Shown in pieces: positions 1,482 to 8,167 of a DNA stretch of 45,006 bases. Under the pieces are notes generated by a model. It did not search any database, was not told where the DNA came from, and saw only the letters and a list, made by a program, of their open reading frames with translations. Numbering within the stretch: position 1 is the stretch's first letter; each line of letters starts with the position of its first letter. Source of the stretch: a virus. The stretch is taken from UHGV virus genome UHGV-0250353. One strand, 5' to 3'. The position numbers were made by a program, and so were the translations under genes.

Positions 1482-3791
1482 TTAATACCCCGGCTGACCG
1501 CGAGTAGAGCGGCGAGCTTTAGAAATCGGTGAGTTGTTATCCTGTAACTGCGACGCTACTGTTTCACTGATTATAATACGTAAACGCCCTTCGTCATCAC
1601 GTTCTGTTACAGCAGAATCTACGCGCCCCGTAGTGTTATTAACTATAGTGACGTTATCACCGCCGGACTGGCCACCGTTTTGCCCCATAATCTCTTTCAT
1701 CTGCTGCGCAGTTCGTACGCGCGATGCGCCAGCAGGCATGATAACTTCCGGTTTGCCGCGTTCTGCGATGGTAGACATCTGCCCCGCTGATAACTGACCG
1801 CCCTGCTCACGTGCCGAGCGGATTTTGGCGATATTAGCCAGCCCCGCGGCAACGGCAGTACCTGCGGCAACCGGTGCCAGGAATGGGCCGACAACCGGTA
1901 TCGCTGCGGTAGACTTATATGCTTCGATAGCCGAGGTGTATGTTGCGATAGTGGCCTGGGCAATAGCAAACGCTTTATACGCGGTGGACGCCTCGCCAAA
2001 TGCCGTTTTAGCATTAGCTGCCATGTCACCGAAAGAACTACCTAAAGCCTCGGCGCGCTTCGTAGCATACTGCTCATTGATAGCGTTAAGCGCCGCCTGA
2101 TACTGTTCCTCGTTAATAAGCCCCTGTTCTCGATACTTATCAGCGACAGCCAGTTTCTGCTGTTCCTGGATGTCGAGGAGCTCAAGCTCAGCGGCGTTCT
2201 GCCCCATAATCTGGGCCATGAAGTCATCGCCTTTCTGCTGCTTTTCCTGCTGCTCTTTTCTTTTCTTATCCAGTTCTTCCTGTCTGGCCTGCTCGGCTGT
2301 GAGCATAATTTGAGTTTTGGCGTTTTCGTATTGCTGCTGGCTTATCGTTCCTGCGCGGTTGAACTCTTCAAGTTTTGCCAGTTTCTGCTCTTCGGCCGCC
2401 GTGATGCGAGAAATTTCATCTCCGGTTGTACGGTCAACCGTAGCAAGGAAATCTTCCGCGGCTTTCTTCTGGCGTTGTGCCGCCGTTTCTTCACGTTTGG
2501 CCTGCGCCGCCAGACGTTTCTCGTTCGATTTAGCCTCGCGGTCTGCCTTCTCTTTCTCGGTCTTGTCAATGCGGGCGATGTCTTGCTGTGCTTCCGTGTC
2601 ACGAGCAGCATTATACGCGGCGATCTGTTCTTTGGTTACAGCTTCACGTTTAGCAAACGCCTGCTTATCCAGTTCAGCTTGCGCCCGGATGCGCTCACGG
2701 TCGCTTAAGATGGCGATTTGCTGATTCTTGACGATAGCTTCGTTCTGCTCCTGGAACCTCTGCGTGGTTGAGTTAACGTTACGACCGAGATTCTTTTGGG
2801 CTTCCGCCGCTGCGTTTGCGGACTTCTCCGCGTTCTCCAGTGCTGTGGCGTTCTTGTTGGCGTTGTCTGTCAGGCGGATAAGTTCCGGATTCAACTGTTT
2901 TGTGTTACCGAGCCAGTCGGTAAACACATCGGCGATGCGGCGGGCATTCTCGGCGGTTGGCTCTTTGTTAAACGCGCTCTGCGCCGCTATCATCTCCAGC
3001 GCCTGGTCACGGTTAACCCCGAACTTACTGCTAAGCTCCGCTATATTCTGCGCCAGCATGTTGACGCCTACGATGTTACCCTCGTAAGTGCCGCCAAGTT
3101 TTTCTAACGTGTCGCCTACATCCGCACCCTTAGAGACCAATGCATCGTACTGGCTAATAGCGGATGCCGTGGAGGCTTTCCATGTCTCCCATGACTCGGC
3201 GTCCTCGCGGACAGCTTTAGCTGTTTGCTGCGCGATAAGGTCTGCGTTAGCCTTAGCCAGAGCAAGCTGAGTCTCCGCCGCTTCTCTGCTGATTTGGGTA
3301 AGCTGGATAAGGCCGTCTGTCAGTTCGAGGGAGCCAGATGCCGTTTGCTGGAAGGTGTCTTTTAACTGTTTCTGCGCGGCTTCCAGGTCTTTTGAACTGC
3401 CTTCTGCTTCGGTTAGCGATTTGTACAGGACACCGCCGATTGCCGAAGCAAGAGCAATCACAGCCCCGAGCACCGCGCCACCAGGTCCGAAAGCACCAGC
3501 AAGCTGCGAACCTTGTTGCCCGATTGCTACGAATGCAGACGTGCCGGATTGCAACTGGACTACCATGTCCTGCACCTGGAAGCCAACCTGCCCTGCAGCG
3601 TTACGGAACTTAGCGAAACCGTCGGAGGCCGCTTTAGACGTAGCGGAGTTTACTTTATTAACGTCCGGCGTTAGTTTGTTTACGGATGTGTCCGCCCGGT
3701 CTGCGGATGCCGCCATAGCGTCAAGCTGTTTAGCGGCCGCATCAGCGCCTTCTGTTTTTACTCTGGCAATTAGGGAAGCCGTATCAGCCAT
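1482..3791 (-). CDS. tail tape measure protein
   Basis: about 770 aa Ala/Gln/Glu-rich coiled-coil protein immediately downstream of chaperone pair; ATG 3791 with GAGG RBS preferred over TTG 3806 used by ORF track. Confidence 0.8.
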   Translation of the reverse strand: MADTASLIARVKTEGADAAAKQLDAMAASADRADTSVNKLTPDVNKVNSATSKAASDGFAKFRNAAGQVGFQVQDMVVQLQSGTSAFVAIGQQGSQLAGAFGPGGAVLGAVIALASAIGGVLYKSLTEAEGSSKDLEAAQKQLKDTFQQTASGSLELTDGLIQLTQISREAAETQLALAKANADLIAQQTAKAVREDAESWETWKASTASAISQYDALVSKGADVGDTLEKLGGTYEGNIVGVNMLAQNIAELSSKFGVNRDQALEMIAAQSAFNKEPTAENARRIADVFTDWLGNTKQLNPELIRLTDNANKNATALENAEKSANAAAEAQKNLGRNVNSTTQRFQEQNEAIVKNQQIAILSDRERIRAQAELDKQAFAKREAVTKEQIAAYNAARDTEAQQDIARIDKTEKEKADREAKSNEKRLAAQAKREETAAQRQKKAAEDFLATVDRTTGDEISRITAAEEQKLAKLEEFNRAGTISQQQYENAKTQIMLTAEQARQEELDKKRKEQQEKQQKGDDFMAQIMGQNAAELELLDIQEQQKLAVADKYREQGLINEEQYQAALNAINEQYATKRAEALGSSFGDMAANAKTAFGEASTAYKAFAIAQATIATYTSAIEAYKSTAAIPVVGPFLAPVAAGTAVAAGLANIAKIRSAREQGGQLSAGQMSTIAERGKPEVIMPAGASRVRTAQQMKEIMGQNGGQSGGDNVTIVNNTTGRVDSAVTERDDEGRLRIIISETVASQLQDNNSPISKARRSTRGQPGY

Positions 3792-4170
3792 CTTCTCTGC
3801 CCTCAAATATTCCGTCTAAGCCCATGATAACCTCGGCTTCGAACAAACTTATGCCGTAACCGGCGACATCACGAAACGCTACCAAATCTTGCCATTTGAG
3901 CGCATCGCGCGGGATTATAACGATAGTATCATCTGTTTCGCGCTGTAGGAATTTAATGGCACGGTATTTCTCGAACACGTCGATAAGAGAAACGGGGCAT
4001 TCTGGCCCCGTCGCTTCTTTCATCTGCGGTTCTTTAATCACACCCATTGCGATCAAAGCTGCTTGATGCCCCGCCGCGATGTCGTCGAATTGCTTACGTT
4101 TCTGGCGGTCGACAAAGCACCATTGCGCAAATTCATACAGCGCTTTTACTTTTCCGAGAGTTTCTCGCGG
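3784..4170 (-). CDS. tail assembly chaperone, -1 frame extension (GT-like fusion partner)
   Basis: reverse frame -1 relative to 4146..4562 is open from 4170 to stop 3784..3786; no ATG of its own (track start is TTG 4056); overlaps GGAAAAG at the last codons of upstream ORF. Confidence 0.4.
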   Translation of the reverse strand, partial: PRETLGKVKALYEFAQWCFVDRQKRKQFDDIAAGHQAALIAMGVIKEPQMKEATGPECPVSLIDVFEKYRAIKFLQRETDDTIVIIPRDALKWQDLVAFRDVAGYGISLFEAEVIMGLDGIFEGREDG

Positions 4171-4562
4171 CTATCGGTGTGGTGTTTAACTACGGCTTCT
4201 GCCAGTCCGCTGTACTGGTCTAACAGGTTAGCCAGCGCCTCTTTGCTGAACGGCTCGTCGAATGACCAACCGGTGACGATGTCGACAGCGAGCTGCTTGT
4301 TCAGGTCCATCACCCGCCAGCCCTTCTCATCGTTATAGCGCGCCCAGTTATTCAGCGCCTCGCACTCTTTATCTAATGGCGCAAGTTCTTCCGTAAGGCG
4401 TCGAATTGCCGTTGTGTAGGCGCGGCCTGCACGAACACCCGCATCACAATCGGGGCCAATGACCTGCAGCCATTCGCCGGAGTCTTTACCGCTCGGCAGG
4501 AGGATAGGCATTTTAGTACCAGTAGCGTGGCGGTCGGCAAAATAAAAATCAGAAAGTTTCAT
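4146..4562 (-). CDS. tail assembly chaperone (G-like)
   Basis: 138 aa ORF, ATG 4562 with AAGGA RBS; position between major tail protein region and tape measure; followed by -1 frame ORF. Confidence 0.55.
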   Translation of the reverse strand: MKLSDFYFADRHATGTKMPILLPSGKDSGEWLQVIGPDCDAGVRAGRAYTTAIRRLTEELAPLDKECEALNNWARYNDEKGWRVMDLNKQLAVDIVTGWSFDEPFSKEALANLLDQYSGLAEAVVKHHTDSREKLSEK

Positions 4563-4669
4563 TCTTTGATCCTTTGGTTAAGAGGTTACAGGTTAAGGTT
4601 GACGCGCCAGACGGGAACCACCCGCTTTTCGTGTGCGACACTAGGCGCAAACTTATTCTAGCACACTAC

Positions 4670-4698
4670 TTGCACACCCCAATATAATAGGGTACTAT
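4670..4698 (+). promoter_or_regulatory. sigma70-like promoter TTGCAC-N17-TACTAT with palindromic operator TAATAGggtaCTATTC (4685..4700)
   Basis: hexamers and spacing read directly; same architecture as minus-strand promoters at 24746..24774 and 26253..26281. Confidence 0.5.
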
Positions 4699-4728
4699 TC
4701 ACCTACACCAACAATGGAGGGATTTAAA

Positions 4729-4920
4729 ATGTCAAGTTTACCAGTTTCCTTAATTCTGTTTGCACTTCTCGCTTATTTCGCGCCTTTCCTGGTTGCGTAC
4801 TTCCGTAATCATAAAGCGAAGTTGGCAATATTCATGGCTAACCTGTTTCTTGGCTGGGTTCTGCTGCCGTGGGTATTTATTTTAATATGGGCTTGCAACT
4901 CGAACGTGAAAGAGAAGTAG
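4729..4920 (+). CDS. small two-TM membrane protein, superinfection-immunity (Imm)-like
   Basis: GGAGGG RBS then ATG 4729; two hydrophobic helices; FRNHKAKLAIFMANLFLGW...WVFILIWA resembles Imm-type small membrane proteins (from memory, not searched). Confidence 0.45.
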   Translation: MSSLPVSLILFALLAYFAPFLVAYFRNHKAKLAIFMANLFLGWVLLPWVFILIWACNSNVKEK

Positions 4921-4958
4921 GCTACTATAAGACAAATCCTAAACACGAGGAAGTAAGC

Positions 4959-6089
4959 ATGGCCCATAAGAAAATAACCGACGAACAGTTACAGGAAGAA
5001 TTGAACGCCGGAATGAAGAATGCAGACATCGCCCGTAAATACGGCATCTCAGACCGCGTAATTCGTATCCGTAAAGCGAAGCTGGCTAAGAAAGGCGTAG
5101 GCCACGGGCGTGACGTTAGTCACCTTGTCCCGGACGGCTACAAAATTAAAGGGACCTCGTCACTGGTGGACGAGTTCGGCAACACTAAACTTCAATGGGT
5201 TAAGACCGACACCGATGCCGAACGTCAGGTCGAGTTGATGAAAGCCGTAATCGAAGGCATGAAGTCGGAGATTACTCCAGTTGCACCAGTTAAAGCCGTT
5301 CGCGCCAAACGTGACGATAAACTACTCAATCTTTACACGGTATCTGATTTCCATCTCGGTATGCTGGCCTGGGCCGACGAGAGCGGCGACGACTGGGATA
5401 TGAAGATTGCGGAAGACCTGTTCTCTCGCTGGTTCGATGCTGCGTTCCAGAAAGCGCCAGATGCAGGAACAGGAGTTATTAACCTGCTTGGCGACCTTGC
5501 GCACTTCGATAGTCTGGATGCCGTTACACCTGCAAGCGGCCATGTTCTTGACGCGGACACGCGCTATCAGAAACTGGTCCGCTACATGATTCGTATGGTT
5601 CGCCGTGTTATTGATATGGCGCTGGTTAAGCATAAAAATGTTCGCTTGCTTATCGTGCAAGGGAACCACGACGAAAGTGGAATGATTTGGTTAGCTGAGA
5701 TGTTCAGTACGCTGTACGACAATGAGCCGCGTGTGTTTGTCGATACTTCACCAGATGTTTACAAGATGGTGCAACACGGCAAAACGACGCTGTTCTTTAC
5801 ACACGGGCATAAATGCCGGTTTGAGGTTGTCGAACCAATTATGATAGCTAAGTTCAGAAAAGCATTTGGAGAAAGCGAGTACAGTTACGCGCATGTAGGG
5901 CATCTCCACCATCAAAAGATTGTAGAAAGTAGGAATATGGTAGTGGAGCAACATCGCACTCTCGCGGCGAAAGATGCATATGCTTCCCGCGGCGGGTGGA
6001 TGTCTAAGAGGTCCGCTAATGTCATAACCTATAGTTCAGAGTTCGGGGAAGTAGGTAGGCTTTCAATCTCACCGGAGATGCTAAGATGA
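4959..6089 (+). CDS. HTH domain fused to calcineurin-like metallophosphoesterase
   Basis: GAGGAAG RBS then ATG 4959; motifs DFHLG, GDLAHFD, GNHDES, THGH, GHLHH in canonical order; N-terminal ADIARKYGISDRVIRIRKAK HTH-like. Confidence 0.7.
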   Translation: MAHKKITDEQLQEELNAGMKNADIARKYGISDRVIRIRKAKLAKKGVGHGRDVSHLVPDGYKIKGTSSLVDEFGNTKLQWVKTDTDAERQVELMKAVIEGMKSEITPVAPVKAVRAKRDDKLLNLYTVSDFHLGMLAWADESGDDWDMKIAEDLFSRWFDAAFQKAPDAGTGVINLLGDLAHFDSLDAVTPASGHVLDADTRYQKLVRYMIRMVRRVIDMALVKHKNVRLLIVQGNHDESGMIWLAEMFSTLYDNEPRVFVDTSPDVYKMVQHGKTTLFFTHGHKCRFEVVEPIMIAKFRKAFGESEYSYAHVGHLHHQKIVESRNMVVEQHRTLAAKDAYASRGGWMSKRSANVITYSSEFGEVGRLSISPEMLR

Positions 6090-6556
6090 AGTACCTTGAT
6101 GTTTCAAAACAATTTAAATACTGCCCTGATACGGGGCAGGTTACCAGGATATCTACTGGTGCTGAGGTTGGTACGGTTGGTGTAAGAGGATATCTGTGCT
6201 GCGGTATGGGTGGTAAAACAGTATATGTCCACCGCGTAGCATGGTGTCTTTATAATAAATGTGACTTAGACAGGAAAACACAAATAGACCACATAAACCA
6301 TAACAGGCTAGACAATAGAATAGAAAATCTACGCGCCACCGACAATACAGGGAACAGTAAAAATAAAACTATGAGAAAGATAAATAAATCCGGGGCTACA
6401 GGTGTAAGTTTCCACAAAGCCGCGGGTAAGTGGCGCGCGTTTATAAAAGTTAACTACAAACAAGTGCATTTAGGGCTTTACGACGATTTTGATGTAGCGG
6501 TTGCCGCGCGTAAAGCCGCTGAGAGTAAATACGGTTTTCATGAAAACCATGAGTAG
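6086..6556 (+). CDS. HNH homing endonuclease with AP2-like domain
   Basis: HRVAW...QIDHINHNRLDNRIENLR HNH motif; GVSFHKAAGKWRAFI AP2-like; ATGA overlap with upstream gene. Confidence 0.75.
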   Translation: MKYLDVSKQFKYCPDTGQVTRISTGAEVGTVGVRGYLCCGMGGKTVYVHRVAWCLYNKCDLDRKTQIDHINHNRLDNRIENLRATDNTGNSKNKTMRKINKSGATGVSFHKAAGKWRAFIKVNYKQVHLGLYDDFDVAVAARKAAESKYGFHENHE

Positions 6557-6567
6557 GAGAGCTATTT

Positions 6568-6798
6568 ATGACTTCAAAATATAACCGCACAATGACAAAT
6601 ACCCACGGCAGCACTATGACAGTAGACGTTTATGATGTGCTGCGGGCCTTCGACATCCGCGACCCAGCACTGCAACACGCTTTGAAGAAATTATTGTGCA
6701 TGGGCTTGCGTGGACACAAAGACACCGGGACGGACTTAGCGGAAGCAATTGAAAGTCTGGAGAAGTTACGAGAGTACCGGAGTAATATTGATGAGTGA
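6568..6798 (+). CDS. hypothetical protein
   Basis: ORF track 76 aa, RBS GGAG upstream, inside island operon. Confidence 0.5.
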   Translation: MTSKYNRTMTNTHGSTMTVDVYDVLRAFDIRDPALQHALKKLLCMGLRGHKDTGTDLAEAIESLEKLREYRSNIDE

Positions 6799-6970: not shown

Positions 6971-6996
6971 AAGGCCCCGAAAGGGGCCTTAGTTTT
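6971..6996. terminator. bidirectional intrinsic terminator AAGGCCCC-GAAA-GGGGCCTT + TTTT
   Basis: 8-bp GC stem, tetraloop, T-run on plus and A-run upstream; sits between convergent genes. Confidence 0.6.
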
Positions 6997-8167
6997 ATGC
7001 GTAGGTGATACGCTGGATAACAATAGACGACTGGTACTGATTGCCGGTAGCCTGGCCTTCGATGGACTGAGTGATTGACTCTGGTCCGCCAATCTCTGGC
7101 GTAACCGCCGTAAGTTCTGCGCGTTTCAGGCTGAAAGACATAGCCCCGTTTACCCCCGCCAGAATAGAGTTAATCTCTACCTGCTGTTCGTTGATAAACT
7201 TCTGAATCATCGCCATGTCGTACAGCTTACCGGAGATAGAGAAGGTGTTAGCCGCGCGACCACGTTCCACGAACGCAACGCTACTGTTGCCGAGTTCGAA
7301 CTGCGCAGAAGCACCGTTGTCGTTTGTGATGGTCAGAGTATCGCAACGCAACGGCGTAGAACCGTCGAACACGGACACATCTACGGATGAGAACGGCTCA
7401 TCGGTAAACGTCACCTGAGAGAAATCAGAACCTGCTGGCGGTGCAGAAAGAATCTCCTGACTTAGACCGATGAACGGGAAGCTGCCTGTCACCATCGCGT
7501 TTACGGCCTGTTCAATGGTGAATCCGGAGATTTCCACGCCTTTGGTCAACATGTACGCGTCCGGGTTCCCGCACTGTCCTTTGAACCATGTCAGGATGGA
7601 GAACGTCTTACATGCGTTACTGGTTTCCAGTTTGTCGCCGGTTTTAGCGTCGGTGGTTACAGTCTCTGCTGTCAGCGTGTGCTGAATGCCCGCACCCGTA
7701 ACTACAAGAGCAGAAACCGCGGTCACGATAAACGGTTTTGCGTTGTCGCCGGTTAAGTCGGTGAACGCAATCAGGTCGCCAACTTCTACACCGTCAGTAA
7801 TGAAGCTACCGGCAGCGCGGGTGAATGTTTTACCTGCTGGGGCGACCGTAATTTCAGCACCCGTAATCTCCACCCCATCCTGCCACGTAGAAGTCATCGC
7901 GCCCGCGAGGAAATCATCCTGGCTACGCGAGCTAAGTTCGATGGCGTACTCCCCGCTAACCTGCTTATTACCAGTGCGGATGGATGTAGTTTCACGGCTG
8001 CCGTCGAGTTCGTTGGAAGTCAGCGCATCGCGGGTTACGGCTGGAACGCCGCCCGTGTTACGCAACGGCGACCAGACCGGGTTAGTCGGTGTTACGCCCG
8101 GGGTATTTTCCACCACATAGAATTGCGCGGTATTCGCGCCCTTAAAAGGAGTTGTAGCCATATTCAC
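6995..8167 (-). CDS. major tail protein (putative)
   Basis: 390 aa Thr/Ser/Gly-rich structural-type protein; last large gene before chaperones/tape measure in transcription order. Confidence 0.5.
   Translation of the reverse strand: MNMATTPFKGANTAQFYVVENTPGVTPTNPVWSPLRNTGGVPAVTRDALTSNELDGSRETTSIRTGNKQVSGEYAIELSSRSQDDFLAGAMTSTWQDGVEITGAEITVAPAGKTFTRAAGSFITDGVEVGDLIAFTDLTGDNAKPFIVTAVSALVVTGAGIQHTLTAETVTTDAKTGDKLETSNACKTFSILTWFKGQCGNPDAYMLTKGVEISGFTIEQAVNAMVTGSFPFIGLSQEILSAPPAGSDFSQVTFTDEPFSSVDVSVFDGSTPLRCDTLTITNDNGASAQFELGNSSVAFVERGRAANTFSISGKLYDMAMIQKFINEQQVEINSILAGVNGAMSFSLKRAELTAVTPEIGGPESITQSIEGQATGNQYQSSIVIQRITYA

Follow-up and report, generated by a model that had tools for sequence, protein, structure and literature searches.

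What does a phage protein that carries a predicted DNA-binding domain in front of a metallophosphoesterase (MPE) act on? The question is raised by a gene in UHGV virus genome UHGV-0250353, a 45,006-nt stretch of DNA that we refer to as the window. A first-pass annotation had described this gene as a helix-turn-helix (HTH) domain fused to a calcineurin-like MPE, had favored a nucleic-acid substrate, and had named cyclic-nucleotide activity as a speculative alternative. The description itself is confirmed and, as far as computation reaches, this cautious interpretation is supported.

Gene structure and predicted fold

The gene (4959..6089, + strand), defined by its ORF and by a match to the profile of phage family PHROG 704, encodes 376 aa followed by a stop codon. 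In a mechanical ORF list the reading frame opens at GTG 4869; ATG 4959 is the better start, because inspection of the sequence places a Shine-Dalgarno GAGG (4947..4950, +) 8 nt 5′ of it and the homologs use the same start.

We used an AlphaFold2 model of the protein (pLDDT 92.8, pTM 0.80) to delimit its parts. Helices at residues 8-16, 21-28 and 32-44 form a predicted three-helix HTH DNA-binding domain of the resolvase / LuxR-GerE / sigma-70 region 4 type (aa 8-44; 4980..5090, +), which superposes as an HTH fold on known DNA-binding domains. The HTH-like segment that had been noticed ahead of the MPE, ADIARKYGISDRVIRIRKAK, occupies aa 22-41. A flexible linker with low model confidence (aa 45-60; 5091..5138, +; pLDDT 62-75) leads to a hairpin of beta-strands (aa 61-85) followed by a long helix (aa 87-104; together 5139..5270, +), both of them part of the conserved core as judged by alignment and model. 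After a second linker, the binuclear MPE domain (aa 119-376; 5313..6086, +) adopts the alpha/beta sandwich of the MPE fold and extends to the C-terminus at residue 376, with nothing beyond.

Conservation of the catalytic center

The five MPE motifs (DxH, GD, GNH(D/E), H, GxH) are present in the order previously proposed, all on the + strand: motif I, D130-F-H132, in the context SDFHLG (5346..5354); motif II, G178-D179-L-A-H182-F-D184 (5490..5510); motif III, G235-N236-H237-D238-E239 (5661..5675); motif IV, T281-H282-G283-H284 (5799..5810); and motif V, G314-H315-L316-H317-H318 (5898..5912). In an alignment of 76 homologs that are 32-50% identical to the query, D130, H132, G178, D179, N236, H237, H282, G314 and H317 are invariant, and H182, H284, H315, G74 and W80 are at least 90% conserved. 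The metal ligands are therefore invariant or nearly so, indicating that catalysis is under selection. Conservation extends to the hairpin, where G74, W80 and K82 are nearly invariant, and to a loop specific to this MPE family, VTPASGHVLDAD (aa 189-200; 5523..5558, +), in which T190, L197 and D198 are each at least 90% conserved.

Profile scores from general databases are low. The protein falls below the Pfam gathering thresholds for both PF12850 (25.3 bits versus 27) and PF00149 (19.5 versus 21.5), and only 15/76 and 11/76 homologs, respectively, match these models at E <= 0.01. NCBIfam gave sub-threshold matches only (FixJ/UhpA to the HTH, and one to PdeM), and sequence searches of the PDB returned no significant match (E of at least 0.07). 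As the lineage is divergent and scores below the Pfam thresholds, superfamily membership rests on the motifs together with the fold. Judged by these, the protein is a member of the calcineurin-like binuclear MPE superfamily, with predicted hydrolase activity.

Distribution and annotation of the family

Over 2.1 kb around the gene, the DNA shares 92-94% identity with the Escherichia phages vB_EcoS-Ro145clw, HSE2, EC3-1 and NTEC3, and about 88% with Jersey-type phages of Salmonella, which identifies the window as the genome of a Kagunavirus (Guernseyvirinae) siphophage. Tail genes continue across the ends of the window, showing that it is circularly permuted. The encoded protein is 91-98% identical to those of phages EC3-1, K1ind1 and Ro145clw, and matches PHROG 704 (“DNA repair exonuclease”) over nearly its full length (E 9.6e-166, aa 4-375 against profile positions 2-389 of 390). 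It shows no substantive difference from this family, whose name is an annotation by similarity.

A word-indexed search gave 2,212 matches, the best 120 of which are all at least 94% identical. When representatives clustered at 50% identity were searched exhaustively, 4,693 clusters matched at E <= 1e-3, a number that falls to 1,154 at E <= 1e-30; among the 150 matches listed, the representatives are mostly 360-420 aa long and align over most of the query. Homologs that lack the HTH occur in Campylobacter phages and among representatives of 270-320 aa, and these retain the hairpin and helix (aa 61-104). By tblastn against GenBank phages, relatives were detected in 2,042 of 50,697 records (about 4%), with identities of 82-98% in Kagunavirus/Jerseyvirus, about 73% in Dhillonvirus and 42-48% in Drexlerviridae; further hosts of the family include Vibrio siphophages, N4-like roseophages, Campylobacter Eucampyvirinae and Flavobacterium phages. 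Only 5 of 72,556 plasmid records carry a homolog, several of them phage-genome-sized.

Depositors have named these proteins “calcineurin-like phosphoesterase,” “putative phosphoesterase” or “DNA repair exonuclease,” and single records carry the labels “putative serine/threonine protein phosphatase,” “transcriptional regulator” and “oxidoreductase.” Only half of the MPE is covered by PHROG 20703 (N-terminal) and by PHROG 20762 (C-terminal), and BFVD contains MPE pieces of 100-260 aa that come from T1-like phages (Jk06, Salmonella phage 36), which indicates that some phages have the gene annotated in fragments. The literature search on the PHROG 704 family returned annotation-level mentions and no functional study. 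The BASEL text on Kagunavirus makes no mention of the phosphoesterase, and neither the phosphoesterase family nor the phage-group names were found in the phage gene-essentiality papers examined (Tn-seq, HIDEN-SEQ, CRISPRi-ART).

The gene is thus an ordinary member of an abundant, catalogued phage family without experimental characterization. With 94-98% identity to deposited phage proteins it is a near-copy of catalogued sequences, and the earlier domain call agrees with existing annotations, so the discovery value of this gene itself is small. The family merits experiment, given 2,042/50,697 phage records, about 4,700 metagenome clusters at 50% identity and an intact catalytic center. It spans T1-like, Dhillonvirus, Kagunavirus/Jerseyvirus, Vibrio, N4-like and Campylobacter phages used in therapy and biocontrol.

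Comparison with known metallophosphoesterases

The first-pass annotation had proposed structure prediction as a means of placing the protein; besides the MPE fold itself, the AlphaFold2 model gave nuclease MPEs as the better structural matches. The only MPEs recovered in a PDB profile search with the MPE part were Mre11/SbcD and a nuclease MPE, with non-significant E-values. Motifs of the Mre11 type (DxHLG, GDxxH/D, GNHD) are found in the MPE domain, and the family's tDyHlG and GDflH align with SDWHLG and GDLLH of Thermotoga maritima Mre11, the nearly invariant H182 pairing with the His of GDLLH. The enzyme most closely resembles the nuclease branch, by a modest margin.

Nevertheless, the enzyme lies outside the Mre11/SbcD family proper (compared here through T. 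maritima Mre11 3qg5, S. aureus SbcD 7dog and E. coli SbcD 6s6v, with T4 gp47 listed alongside by analogy), as it has no capping domain, Rad50-binding tail or ATPase partner. Sequence similarity to Mre11/SbcD is not significant (E about 1). The last MPE strands close the phage protein at residue 376, leaving no Mre11-type capping domain, and the C-terminal helices with which Mre11/SbcD bind Rad50 are likewise absent; it carries instead the N-terminal HTH and hairpin-helix. No Rad50/SbcC/gp46-like ATPase is present in the annotation of the near-identical EC3-1 genome, and no Rad50/SbcC-like gene occurs among the conserved neighbors in 160 related loci.

Two other nuclease MPEs offer partial parallels. 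The archaeal PolD small subunit DP1 (5ihe), a 3′-5′ proofreading exonuclease, is only 11% identical to the phage MPE, which lacks both the OB-fold domain and the DP2 partner of DP1; the phage polymerase, annotated just as “DNA polymerase,” is presumably a family-A enzyme. PdeM (P. putida 6nvo), a ligase-associated DNA endonuclease, likewise stands alone without a Rad50 partner, and shows a weak sequence match around motif III; its association with a ligase is paralleled by one phage homolog, which adjoins a ligase gene. The PdeM model TIGR04123, however, scores 10-11.5 bits against a cut-off of 150, and no ligase gene is present in the Kagunavirus genome (EC3-1 annotation), a ligase neighbor being seen only for the Campylobacter phage homolog. 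Compared with the characterized MPE nucleases, the phage enzyme is a distinct architectural variant in which an HTH tether replaces the capping domain and Rad50.

Gene contexts in other phages

To place the gene among its neighbors, we retrieved 160 IMG/VR loci with two distant homologs, called their ORFs and clustered the products, naming clusters by Pfam or by eye (DnaB, TerS/TerL). Upstream neighbors include NinB (45 loci), DUF1376 (37), NinG (29) and DnaB (24), as well as RusA in some loci; a dGTP_diPhyd_N-type gene is immediately upstream in some. Immediately downstream, antiterminator Q is found in 18/160 loci and a 181-aa protein without a Pfam match in about 15, and terminase lies four to twelve genes downstream in 53/160. 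These recurrent neighbors place the gene in the nin region of lambdoid-type contigs, between NinG/RusA and Q.

Elsewhere the setting varies. T1-like phages carry the gene behind their replication genes, and in one of them it follows helicase, VRR-NUC and Dam and precedes the holin; a link to the T1 “pip” packaging-initiation function was considered and dropped for want of sequence-level evidence. The gene lies downstream of the lysis genes in a Dhillonvirus, of thymidylate synthase in an N4-like roseophage, and of the gene for an OB-fold protein in a Vibrio phage. In Campylobacter phage NCTC12673 (Eucampyvirinae), a 317-aa homolog (3998-4951 of the examined locus) sits directly downstream of DNA ligase; it has no HTH and begins at the conserved hairpin, at query residue 65.

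Proposed function and alternatives

We hypothesize that the protein is a stand-alone, HTH-tethered, metal-dependent phosphodiesterase of the Mre11/SbcD/DP1-like nuclease branch that acts in phage replication and recombination, and we put the probability of this reading at roughly 0.55. DNA is favored as the substrate by the HTH, by the nuclease-like fold and motifs, and by the replication and recombination neighborhoods, which lend computational support to the nucleic-acid substrate suggested earlier; taken together with selection for catalysis, this evidence leads us to read the protein as a DNA nuclease or end-processing phosphodiesterase. In such a mechanism the HTH would anchor the enzyme to duplex DNA, and the two-metal center, with D130/H132, D179, N236, H282 and H315/H317 as metal ligands and H182 and H237 as likely catalytic helpers, would cleave phosphodiester bonds in DNA, acting exo- or endonucleolytically or in end trimming. 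The enzyme would work in early or middle infection, alongside the replication and recombination functions of the phage, on ends or intermediates of phage DNA, with host DNA possibly attacked too, and would operate without a Rad50/SbcC ATPase. An Mre11-like nuclease with an HTH tether in place of the Rad50 clamp would be a compact alternative for bringing an MPE nuclease to DNA.

A more specific version of this proposal, in which the HTH confers sequence or structure specificity and the family forms a new class of site-directed MPE endonucleases making a defined cut in phage or host DNA, strikes us as improbable. If true, the cut might, for example, start recombination-dependent replication, process concatemers or disable a host locus, and, as the family occurs in about 4% of phage genomes, would be a widespread unstudied step in phage DNA metabolism.

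We ranked five alternatives to the HTH-tethered replication and recombination nuclease. The best placed, which we nonetheless regard as unlikely, is a nuclease for host takeover or counter-defense that would attack the host chromosome early by degradation or nicking, supplying nucleotides and silencing defense genes, and would not process phage DNA. Gp48 of mycobacteriophage A10ZJ24, a cluster A MPE with phosphodiesterase and DNase activity, is reported to damage host DNA and to be required to overcome host defenses (PMC12287305), and provides a precedent. It shares the five motifs with the Kagunavirus protein but has no N-terminal HTH, its motif I Asp being residue 10, and the two are compared here at the level of the superfamily. 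Consistent with host takeover, the gene shares with a superinfection-immunity gene a cassette that has its own orientation, as is typical of accessory or early genes, and the family is common in virulent siphophages (T1-like, Dhillonvirus, Guernseyvirinae). Lambdoid-type contigs, however, often carry it too, in the nin region and next to genes for recombination. Moreover, PADLOC returned no match for the protein, and in the BASEL phenotyping Kagunavirus phages stood out as sensitive to restriction-modification systems and to Old, a result that does not point to strong counter-defense of a general kind.

End healing comes next and seems to us improbable as well. Here the enzyme would strip 3′-phosphate, 2′,3′-cyclic phosphate or other blocks from the ends of broken DNA or RNA, making these ends fit for extension or ligation, by analogy with the MPE module of bacterial Pnkp or with ligase-associated PdeM. 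The position of the NCTC12673 homolog directly after DNA ligase, the presence of ligase-associated nuclease MPE/PdeM among the weak sequence matches, and the dATP/dGTP diphosphohydrolase-type upstream neighbor in some IMG/VR loci all point in this direction.

We consider it more doubtful still that the protein is a phosphodiesterase for second messengers, hydrolyzing cyclic mono-, di- or oligonucleotides against CBASS, Pycsar, Thoeris or type III CRISPR signals, and thus retain the earlier suggestion of cyclic-nucleotide activity as a low-ranking rival. An enzyme that acts on a small molecule would have no evident need of a conserved DNA-binding HTH, structural comparison favors the nuclease MPEs, the gene contexts are replication and recombination modules, and the PADLOC result speaks against this function too.

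A protein Ser/Thr/Tyr phosphatase that resets host or phage protein phosphorylation as a functional analogue of lambda NinI is very improbable. The slot before Q in the nin region, between NinG and Q in many lambdoid-type contigs, is one that we take to correspond to the position of ninI on the lambda map, and one GenBank homolog bears the serine/threonine phosphatase label. Although an MPE as well, lambda NinI (lambda protein phosphatase) belongs to the protein-phosphatase family, and the PPP-type signatures GDxHG, GDxVDRG and GNHE that mark this type are lacking from the protein. Least supported, and highly unlikely, is a protein that mainly regulates transcription, its HTH binding promoters such as those of late genes and its MPE domain acting in a sensory or accessory capacity. 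In its favor are the likeness of the HTH to LuxR/sigma-70 region 4 domains, a weak match (E 1.8e-4) to PHROG 836 “late transcriptional activator,” the position of the gene directly ahead of Q or the late genes in many contigs, and one GenBank record that names a transcriptional regulator. Against it, the strict invariance of the metal ligands shows that catalysis is selected for, and the existence of HTH-less homologs in Campylobacter phages and among 270-320 aa representatives identifies the enzyme, not the HTH, as the conserved core.

Organization of the cassette

In the window, the MPE gene sits in a short + strand cassette opposed to the - strand tail genes, in the order superinfection-immunity gene, MPE, HNH_3/AP2 endonuclease, one or two small ORFs and a hairpin. 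The immunity-MPE-HNH arrangement is also present in EC3-1, K1ind1, Ro145clw and Jerseyvirus. The immunity gene (4714-4920, +) encodes a small membrane protein (PF14373, E 9e-13; PHROG 1039), and ATG 4729 is favored as its start because GGAGGG lies at 4716-4721; this gives 63 aa, as annotated in EC3-1. The HNH_3 + AP2 homing-type endonuclease gene (6086-6556, +) overlaps the MPE stop codon through ATGA. A 76-aa ORF (6568-6798, +) matches only the C-terminal ~70 positions of PHROGs of ~240 residues (2452; 17613 “ATPase”) and is either a remnant or a stand-alone C-terminal domain.

An operator search upstream of the cassette found a single repeat, an imperfect 13-nt inverted repeat (4631-4643 / 4654-4666). 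It is followed by a perfect TATAAT (4683-4688) with a poor -35, and a scan for consensus promoters called none in this region; together the repeat and the hexamer (4631-4688) may form a candidate operator and promoter. At the other end, a perfect 8-bp GC-rich hairpin, AAGGCCCC GAAA GGGGCCTT (6971-6990), separates the cassette from the convergent tail tube gene (6995-8167, -). It is followed on either strand by a T-rich tail and is probably a bidirectional terminator.

Among the - strand tail genes are two tail assembly chaperone ORFs (4146-4562, - and 3784-4056, -). The 259-position profile of PHROG 15027 is divided between them, with positions 1-138 on the former and 170-259 on the latter, a pattern that suggests the usual programmed frameshift giving a G/GT-type fusion.
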